This document shows positions 22,532 through 23,416 of a DNA stretch of 64,000 bases, piece after piece. The stretch's first letter is position 1. Every line of letters starts with the position of its first letter. Both the position numbers and the translations under genes were made by a program. Source of the DNA: Massalongia carnosa (taxonomy: Eukaryota); the NCBI GenBank assembly GCA_965645245.1, contig OZ287087.1:1116001-1180000 (forward strand), read 5' to 3'. The notes beneath the pieces are model-generated. The model was given only the letters and a program-made list of their open reading frames with translations. It did no database searches and was not told the origin of the DNA.

Positions 22532-23416
22532 AACAACAAGAAACACAAGTACCGCAACTTTTGATACACTATAACTTTAACAGTCAATTGAGCCTCTATT
22601 TCTCAGTCATTTGCGCTCCTCCAGAGCTAAAACGCTCTCAGATTGAGTGTAGGAGAGCTCTAGCAAAGCTCCAGCAGAGTTTTTCTGCTGGTCGCACGCG
22701 ACCGACGTGATAAAGCGCGCTTTAGAAGTTGGAAAAAACAACAAATACAAACAACCTCACCAAAAATCGCTCTTTTTTCTTGTTTTCTTCTGTTCTGTTG
22801 TCGCATGACCTTCAATTATTACTATAAAATTATCTACAAAAATTATCTACTCTCGCGGGACTGTACAACAACTGTCGCGACGTCAAAGTTTTCTAAAGTT
22901 CATTCCTCATTTAAGGTTACGGGAACTTCCGCAAGCACAAATTTTCATAGCATATTTCACGTATAATTTTTGCACATTCCATTTTCGGCTTTATAGATCT
23001 TCGTTGAAAGGCCGGTCAACAGATCACTGAAAAGAAGGGGAAAAACGTCTGGAATAAGATTATACCAAAGGTCCTGTTTCAGATTAATCAGAATAGGAAG
23101 TCTCCTATTGTCTTACATTGCATTAAAATTTATCTTTATTGAAAAAAGCAAAAAAAACTTTCATTATTTTCACCTATTGTAGTGTCTGGTAAAGGGTTAA
23201 ATAAGACTTACTTACTGCCTTAGCGAGGAACGGTCTATTTTAACCCGATTAGGTTTTATTTGACGCGTTATAGTCAAATAAATAGGGATAGGAAAGAAAG
23301 AGTTATTTGACCAGTAAACAAACAGGTGTAAATTCTATTCTGACTAGTACTTCCGGGGAAAGTCAGAATAAATTATTTGGTGGCGATAAAAGGGATATTG
23401 CAAAGGCAAAAACACT

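Follow-up and report, generated by a model that had tools for sequence, protein, structure and literature searches.

A candidate selected RNA structure upstream of ORF1 in a LINE retrotransposon of Massalongia carnosa

Why should a long interspersed nuclear element (LINE) keep a row of hairpins in the non-coding leader of its RNA, shortly before the start of its first open reading frame (ORF1)? We address this question in Massalongia carnosa (Eukaryota), in a stretch of 64,000 nucleotides (nt) of contig OZ287087.1 (positions 1,116,001 to 1,180,000 of the forward strand; assembly GCA_965645245.1). We refer to this whole stretch as the window; within it, region 23030-23375 forms the 3' third of the ~875-nt 5' leader of one LINE copy, here copy C. 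We describe a multi-hairpin domain shared by four copies of the element, and we discuss the evidence from conservation, covariation, and folding that its pairing is under selection, which we consider likely for at least hairpins i, ii, and iv. We weigh the functions that such a domain may have, specifically as a protein-binding platform, a DNA-level promoter element, an internal ribosome entry site (IRES), or a ribozyme, as well as the possibility that it has no dedicated function. We then compare it with structured leaders of other retroelements and place the element in its genomic setting.

Introduction

Attention was drawn to this region by an original prediction, made from the letters of the window, that four LINE copies share a covarying multi-hairpin RNA in their 5' untranslated region (UTR), possibly a new IRES, ribozyme, or regulatory RNA. 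The four copies lie where they had been placed: blastn and an nhmmer profile find the hairpin domain exactly four times in the window, each time at E<1e-120, and the next match has E=1.5. All quoted stems, together with the compensatory differences in hairpins i, ii, and iv, can be read back from the sequence. The description of a non-coding LINE leader also holds: none of the four copies has, in any frame, an uninterrupted run of 45 codons or more within the domain, and open stretches further upstream in the leader are not conserved between copies. The extent needed correction. The flagged blocks are real, the leader begins ~490 nt further upstream, and two features had been missed, the small hairpin i-b and an inner helix within hairpin ii.

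Conservation of the hairpin blocks

Identity was measured pairwise between the four copies in 60-nt windows. The hairpin blocks are 76-94% identical between subfamilies, versus 28-67% at the ORF1 N-terminus (23442-23621, in pairs with data), which bears out the earlier claim that the blocks are kept better than the adjacent coding sequence; the body of ORF1 is 60-78% identical. Across 23205-23384, identity is 83-92% for A/B, 76-81% for B/C, 78-86% for C/D, and 76-88% for A/C. The block of hairpin i (23055-23114) is 75-91% identical, the part of the A/T-rich spacer that follows it (23115-23153) 33-61%, and the leader upstream of 22885, in the distant pairs, 56-85%, mostly 58-72%. No other part of the first 1.4 kb of the element evolves as slowly as the hairpin blocks, and conservation is block-wise, with all six pairwise comparisons peaking in the same blocks. 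Stems and unpaired segments share in it: 25.1% of 203 non-stem columns vary, versus 19.8% of 86 stem columns. Loops and linkers nearly as conserved as the stems suggest sequence-specific recognition and not a mere stable fold.

The copies are also mosaic. Copies A and C are 83-100% identical upstream of 23115; in 23205-23384, A is nearer to B (83-92%) than to C (76-88%). Such a pattern suggests that subfamilies recombined or switched templates. In its ORF1 N-terminus, copy A is unlike both B and C.

Anatomy of the hairpin domain

Read from the alignment, four predicted hairpins, the small fifth hairpin i-b, and the inner helix within hairpin ii are kept in all copies (Table 1). One pair of hairpin i differs on both sides: copies A and C have A-U there, copies B and D have G-C. 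Five pairs of this hairpin vary through G·U, and in each copy it depends on 4-6 G·U pairs. Hairpin i-b is weaker than the other hairpins, and its register is shifted in D. In hairpin ii, an outer G-C is replaced by A-U in B, two inner pairs switch between U·G and C-G, and 100% of the cells (one pair in one copy) are paired. In hairpin iv, the loop-proximal C-G becomes U-A in A. The stems first described are thus present, with departures in detail: hairpin i has an A·C mismatch private to copy C, hairpin iii has mismatches in A, C, and D, and hairpin iv has one in D. Likewise, the core of hairpin ii had been called near-invariant; it reads 'tgcctaagcg' in most copies, and one base differs in copy C ('tgccttagcg').

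Between hairpins, the unpaired positions of the domain are 57-60% purine. The single-stranded tail is followed by 0-29 variable nt up to the ORF1 AUG, a distance that differs between copies, and the domain as a whole ends 0-60 nt before this AUG.

Two further sequence relationships occur within the domain. A word of ~9 nt (CAGAATAGG and variants) and its complement occur ~6-8 times, in both orientations, in 23049-23109 and 23334-23372, so the arms of hairpins i, i-b, and iv are related and can cross-pair. In addition, the loop of hairpin i carries ACCAAA (23064-23069), complementary to UUUGGU (23378-23383) immediately 3' of hairpin iv; neither sequence varies among the four copies. A long-range or pseudoknot contact between them is possible; a 6-mer match of this kind would arise by chance about 1 time in 4.

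Table 1. Positions of the leader, the hairpin domain and its parts, and ORF1 (window coordinates)
Feature	Position	Strand	Description
5' leader of copy C	22541..23416	+	~875 nt; one ATG, private to copy C; likeness to A/B begins ~22541-22545
Domain, copy C	23027-23416	+	found by blastn and nhmmer
Hairpin i	23047..23084	+	predicted; 15 bp, 8-nt loop, G·U-rich
Hairpin i-b	23092..23109	+	predicted; AAUAGGA / UCCUAUU, 4-nt loop; 85.7% of cells paired
Variable spacer	23110..23190	+	A/T-rich, length differs by copy, large indels; yardstick of unconstrained change
Hairpin ii	23194..23246	+	predicted; 8-bp outer stem, 2+3-bp inner helix, 3-bp tip, 5-nt loop; core GCCUAAGCGAGGAACGG
Hairpin iii	23254..23283	+	predicted; 11 bp, 8-nt loop, A-U rich
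Conserved linker	23284..23335	+	purine-rich (UAGGGAUAGGAAAG...), then a short variable stretch; invariant columns
Hairpin iv	23336..23370	+	predicted; 9 bp, conserved 17-nt loop (majority sequence UAGUACGUCCGGGGAAC)
Single-stranded tail	23371..23408	+	AAAUUAUUUGGUGGYGAUAAAAGGGAUAU...GGCA, invariant columns
ORF1 of copy C	23417..24598	+	393 aa, cut short; opens at the first ATG after the domain
Domain, copy A	15525-15912	-	leader 15510-16397, ORF1 ATG at 15509
Domain, copy B	16915-17332	-	leader 16901-17853, ORF1 ATG at 16900
Domain, copy D	36639-37026	+	leader from ~36121, ATG at 37027, ORF1 interrupted

Evidence bearing on selection for pairing

The four stems comprise 43 pairs, or 172 cells over the four copies, of which 97.1% are paired, and in three pairs both sides have changed, each time on a different branch. 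With the partners displaced by 1-3 columns, both-sided changes number 0-1 and pairing drops to 30-49%. Shuffle controls reached the covariation score in 3 of 500 cases. Extending the model to 58 pairs, so that it takes in hairpin i-b and the helices inside hairpin ii, gives a similar picture. We also permuted alignment columns, swapping them among domain columns with the same majority base: at least three compensatory pairs were obtained with P=0.009, and the five broken cells compare with 18.0±3.7 expected (P=0.0001). Transitions and transversions stand at 13:4 in stems versus 23:23 outside (Fisher one-sided p=0.053), and one-sided stem changes in the 58-pair table yield G·U nine times and A·C twice. 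Across the whole leader, a scan finds 17 helices of at least 7 bp that are paired in all four copies; 60 column shuffles averaged 0.2 such helices and never exceeded 2.

Folding energies add strand information. Hairpin i reaches -19.4 (A), -22.9 (B), -12.3 (C), and -23.6 (D) kcal/mol on the sense strand, with z of -3.2 to -7.0 relative to dinucleotide shuffles, and only -4.6 to -11.8 kcal/mol on the antisense strand. Its consensus gives -21.7 kcal/mol in sense (z -7.04, matched by 0 of 150 shuffles) and -7.0 kcal/mol in antisense (z -0.36). Strand-specific pairing holds for hairpin i only, which folds on the sense strand alone. For the remaining hairpins, sense energies are about -15 to -17 kcal/mol in hairpin ii (z about -3), -7.8 to -11.0 kcal/mol in hairpin iii (z -3.5 to -5.5), and -3.8 to -11.4 kcal/mol in hairpin iv (z +0.6 to -2.8).

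Contigs from four other organisms provide a further set of variants, which we take as supportive only. Among the differences listed there, the 21 best-supported ones within the domain fall at 18 unpaired positions and three stem positions, and none is pair-breaking. Two of the changes, 23057 A>G and 23254 T>A, restore pairing where copy C alone has a mismatch; at 23254, all contigs of these organisms carry A. Repeat-induced point mutation (RIP) was considered as a source of the paired transitions and rejected: positions 1-40000 have no RIP signature (TpA/ApT 0.63; (CpA+TpG)/(ApC+GpT) 1.29), and the transversions that are common outside the stems also count against such an origin.

Several observations weigh against a selected RNA structure with a protein partner. 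In terms of statistics, there are four sequences and the stems were chosen on these same sequences, which inflates the paired-cell figures, and the pair count was reached by 25 of 500 shuffles. In terms of the individual hairpins, iii has no compensatory change and carries three private mismatches (one each in A, C, and D), and hairpins ii-iv are strand-symmetric Watson-Crick inverted repeats (consensus z -4.83 in sense, -5.73 in antisense). The whole of copy C folds unremarkably in sense (z -1.41) versus z -4.03 in antisense. Other pairings compete as well. RNAalifold swaps hairpin iv for a long-range helix between 23088-23097 and 23335-23344; a helix UCUAYUU / AARUAGG, with a both-sided change private to D, is a rival of hairpins ii and iii; and both CAGAAUAGG and its complement appear repeatedly, in either orientation, so that alternative pairings or a cluster of DNA-level motifs are possible. 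Finally, the ORF1 proteins of LINEs are generally held to bind RNA with little sequence specificity. The covariation statistics from four copies are suggestive, not decisive. On balance, we consider it probable that selection acts on RNA pairing, at least in hairpins i, ii, and iv.

An AUG-depleted leader

The sense strand of the leader is almost free of ATG. Copies A (888 nt) and B (953 nt) have none, versus 9.6 and 10.4 expected; copy C (876 nt) has one versus 8.0, and copy D (906 nt) three versus 11.2. Counts as low were seen in 0, 0, 1, and 0 of 1000 dinucleotide shuffles, respectively. The antisense strand of the leaders holds 11-18 ATGs. ATG is the most depleted of the 64 trinucleotides in the leaders, with an observed/expected ratio of 0.036 (the next lowest is 0.59), and the single ATG of copy C (around 22805) is missing in A, B, and D.

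A purge of AUG over the whole leader is expected of ribosomes that scan from the cap, and it argues against an IRES; an ATG-free leader further implies that the entire leader is part of the mRNA. The leader of human L1 is reportedly strictly cap-dependent, and the AUG-free leader described here points to scanning as in that report, unlike an IRES. The original prediction had conceded that a transcription start downstream of the blocks would turn them into DNA promoter elements. Such a start is excluded by logic, because LINE sequence that is copied to new loci must have been in the LINE RNA.

The upstream half of the leader (22590-22880) contains invariant blocks of its own: GAGAGCTC, GCTCC.GCAGAG, TTGTCGCAT, a direct repeat of CTGTCGCG, and ACTGTACA. 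They are candidates for an internal promoter. Similarity and complementarity between the domain and the 3' UTR remain within the range of shuffles (eight comparisons, with 17-193 of 200 shuffles at least as high).

Proposed function and alternative explanations

Conserved loops and linkers, together with purine-rich unpaired positions, point to a recognition platform and not to a mere stability element. Our proposal is that the domain is a selected sense-strand RNA structure which would serve as a protein-binding or regulatory platform within the AUG-free leader; we infer the binding, the partner, and the effect, and consider the proposal to have about an even chance of being correct. In this scheme, the leader would be transcribed from the first base of the element, and ribosomes would scan from the cap to the first AUG. 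The hairpin domain would offer a sequence- and shape-specific surface to a protein, most economically the knuckle-bearing ORF1 protein of the element itself, or else a host factor. A protein bound beside the start codon could then mark the RNA for assembly into a ribonucleoprotein (RNP) and damp ORF1 translation, acting as a translation-to-packaging switch. A more specific version, modelled on the retroviral packaging signal psi, is that the Gag-like ORF1 protein binds the exposed G/purine-rich loops and linkers, nucleates the RNP, and stops translation; by means of the repeated CAGAAUAGG words, the domain would be able to switch from one fold to another. We regard this version as rather unlikely.

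The hairpins could instead be by-products of a DNA-level element, in which clustered binding sites of an internal promoter or enhancer happen to lie in opposite orientations. Such a role would suit the ~6-8 occurrences of CAGAATAGG / CCTATTCTG in both orientations within the domain, the strand symmetry of hairpins ii-iv, and the internal location of LINE promoters in the 5' UTR (PMC11602158). Yet oppositely oriented sites need not change together, whereas three paired positions here changed on both sides and stayed complementary, and these compensatory positions lie outside the repeated word. Moreover, the 4-6 G·U pairs per copy of hairpin i are mismatches in DNA and on the other strand, and the domain lies 500-835 nt downstream of the first base of the element, far from the core promoter. 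We therefore think a DNA-level origin unlikely, and assign a comparably small probability to the view that the domain has no dedicated function, its conservation reflecting recent exchange between subfamilies and its palindromes and paired changes arising by chance. The mosaic structure of the copies speaks for exchange (A is like C upstream of 23115, at 83-100%, and like B in 23205-23384, at 83-92%), there are only four sequences, and individual tests are marginal (25/500, p=0.053, and p~0.03-0.06). A single exchanged segment, however, does not resemble six comparisons that all peak in the same blocks while the spacer stays at 33-61%; nor does chance sit easily with 17 conserved helices versus 0.2 expected, permutation values of P=0.009 and P=0.0001, the listed variants of four other organisms that break no stem, and the lack of a RIP signature.

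The two specific functions named in the original prediction fare less well than its broader claim of a selected RNA structure, which the pairing pattern on the sense strand favors. An IRES would recruit ribosomes internally to the ORF1 AUG, and a multi-hairpin domain with conserved loops directly upstream of a start codon has the appearance of one; IRES activity upstream of both ORFs of mouse L1 has been reported (PMC3592465). This role is improbable here, given that the entire ~880-nt leader is purged of AUG and not merely the part after the domain, that the spacing from domain to AUG varies by 0-29 nt between copies, and that no Rfam IRES family matches at E<=10. A self-cleaving ribozyme, of a new or known class, seems to us highly improbable. 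Non-LTR (long terminal repeat) elements do carry HDV-like (hepatitis delta virus) and twister-type ribozymes (PMC3185411, PMC3774820, and PMC8501958), and the loop of hairpin iv loosely recalls the hammerhead core; against this, the hammerhead-like string has U in place of the catalytic G8 of the hammerhead consensus, and no ribozyme family matches at E<=10 around any of the four copies. The domain also lies ~500 nt inside the element, all four copies keep the upstream 490 nt, so that the RNA that was copied had not been cut here, and element ends do not accumulate at the domain in the contigs.

Comparison with known RNA families

The domain matches no curated RNA family: within the window, the gathering score is not attained for any family in Rfam. 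No Rfam ribozyme or IRES family is found at E<=10 in 22300-23500, 15400-17400, or 36100-37100, and covariance models of the HDV-like, hammerhead, and twister ribozymes give no match at E<=10 around any of the four copies. A strong Rfam match, named in advance as a result that would deprive the domain of its novelty, was not encountered. The nearest approach is RT-14 (RF02921), a sub-cutoff match in one copy only: copy C scores 29.5 bits versus a cutoff of 48.1 (E 0.02-0.055), and its alignment with the model (144 positions) runs end to end across hairpins iii-iv and extends to the loop letters UAGUA...GAA. We reject it as a chance resemblance. Copies A, B, and D have no match to RT-14 at E<=10, and the score depends on the T at 23351, which copy C alone carries and where all other contigs have G. 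RT-14 itself is described as a bacterial motif near reverse-transcriptase genes (PMC5737381). A keyword search of the open-access literature yielded no described structured 5' leader in fungal or Tad1-type LINEs.

Comparison with structured leaders of other retroelements

Among non-LTR elements, the closest working analogue that we can offer is the 5' RNA of R2Bm, a 323-nt structured segment that orchestrates the R2 protein in second-strand cleavage (PMC2346776). Each is a structured RNA, several hundred nt long, close to the 5' end of its non-LTR element. The R2 RNA, which is neither an IRES nor the 5'-terminal ribozyme, acts in cis by binding its own protein, a binding which is only proposed for the present domain. 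R2 is site-specific, has a single ORF, and encodes a restriction-like endonuclease, and its structured segment lies within the 5' part of the coding sequence, whereas the present domain is purely non-coding and lies upstream of a Gag-like ORF1, in a two-ORF element that bears RNase H. The two are likened by layout, not by homology.

Other leaders of non-LTR elements share single features. The HDV-like ribozymes of L1Tc (Pr77) and R2 are likewise conserved structured RNAs in the 5' part of the element; they occupy the first ~77-200 nt (PMC3185411 and PMC3774820) and cut at the first base of the element, whereas the domain described here starts ~500 nt in. With the IRES regions of mouse L1 (PMC3592465), the present case shares a long LINE leader (~900 nt) before ORF1 and the question of the route by which ribosomes arrive at the AUG; there is no sequence similarity.

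A resemblance of a different kind is to retroviruses, and it is this resemblance that the psi-like version of our proposal takes up. Retroviral psi is a multi-hairpin domain of the leader beside the gag AUG, and it is bound by the zinc knuckles of Gag and its nucleocapsid (NC) part. By analogy, the LINE domain would present 4-5 hairpins with purine/G-rich exposed segments just ahead of the start codon for a Gag-like protein with knuckles, and a choice between translation and packaging is plausible here as well. Unlike psi, the present domain has no dimerization site and no primer-binding site, and the analogy is in layout only. The assembly of LINE RNPs is generally attributed to cis-preference, with no dedicated signal involved. 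We would class the domain as a putative cis-acting structured retroelement leader, with no homologous family on record.

The element and its ORF1

The element is a non-LTR retrotransposon (LINE), with reverse transcriptase, RNase H, an A-rich tail, and a defined common 5' end. RVT_1 (E 2e-35) and RNase_H (E 1e-10) are found in 11651-14737, and also in other ORF2 pieces of the window. Exo_endo_phos_2 (E 4e-16) was seen only in the database relative P0017. At the 3' end, four copies have a ~235-nt 3' UTR and an A-rich tail of the AATAAATAAAA... type, followed by unrelated sequence. At the 5' end, A, B, C, and D begin at a common motif, with unrelated flanks upstream, and contigs from another organism (run X2) have loose ends at 22540, where their flanks diverge. 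In terms of clade, the order of domains fits RNase-H-bearing I/Tad1-type elements, an assignment that we infer from that order. We read it as a two-ORF element with a Gag-like ORF1, active or recently active.

ORF1 of copy C has 18 relatives at E<=1e-3 among 5932 candidates, 17 from ENA and one from Logan, and most of them sit on megabase-long contigs. Full-length relatives have 450-524 aa and C-terminal Cys/His knuckles of the CX2CX4HX4C type, as read from the alignment; on this basis ORF1 appears to be a Gag-like, knuckle-bearing protein. A Pfam search with ORF1 gave no domain above cutoff. The closest ORF1-like clusters in the protein Atlas are ascomycete, with a score of 0.90, which is a lead only. 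Residues 1 to ~70 of ORF1 (23417-23620 and relatives) are proline-rich and differ strongly between subfamilies; conservation starts at MDQ(S/T)xE(Y/F)..SAP.TPT and MPSLNS, and some database gene models begin at these internal Met residues. Copy D has no ORF of at least 150 aa at its ATG (37027). Its likeness to ORF1 of copy C ends ~70 nt past the ATG and resumes at 37689, after an unrelated interruption of ~590 nt.

Genomic setting and distribution

Positions 1-40000 of the window are nearly all a nest of copies and fragments of this LINE, in both orientations, mutually inserted or abutting. For example, copy C is broken up by fragments at 24914, and upstream of it a minus-strand copy, truncated at its 5' end, stops at 22531 in head-to-head orientation. 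The GC content is 31-43% in the first 40 kb versus 41-51% from 40 kb on.

Exact 31-mers of the leader are found in 12 runs (X1-X12) from 10 studies, which represent at least nine differently coded organisms and a lichen metagenome. Run X2 contains 3183 contig pieces that match the leader, and the LINE family is very abundant there. No RNA run with the leader figures among the 18 runs listed. Searches of wider contig collections were negative. The core pattern has 0 matches in metagenome contigs, genome contigs, and viral contigs; the ORF1 alignment gave 238 pattern matches in metagenome contigs and 55 in viral contigs, with 0 confirmed in either. A second pattern matched two contigs labelled as prokaryotic metagenome-assembled genomes (L001:1501-1522 and L002:1501-1522). 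We discard these as chance, the match covering only 22-27 nt: each has an exact 22-nt match to the conserved tail motif and nothing else of the element.

Implications for LINE biology

The manner in which a LINE RNA is chosen for translation versus packaging is still argued, and is mostly explained by co-translational cis-preference. With the hairpin domain, a defined RNA element that can be mutated is at hand to ask whether RNase-H-bearing LINEs with a Gag-like ORF1 use a specific signal. It is also a candidate for a new Rfam family, so far limited to a small group of ascomycete (lichen-associated) genomes. Should a larger alignment show no covariation, the domain would be merely a well-conserved segment of the leader, of local interest. 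If the psi-like version were true, some LINEs would use a dedicated packaging/translation switch, as retroviruses do, and not cis-preference alone.

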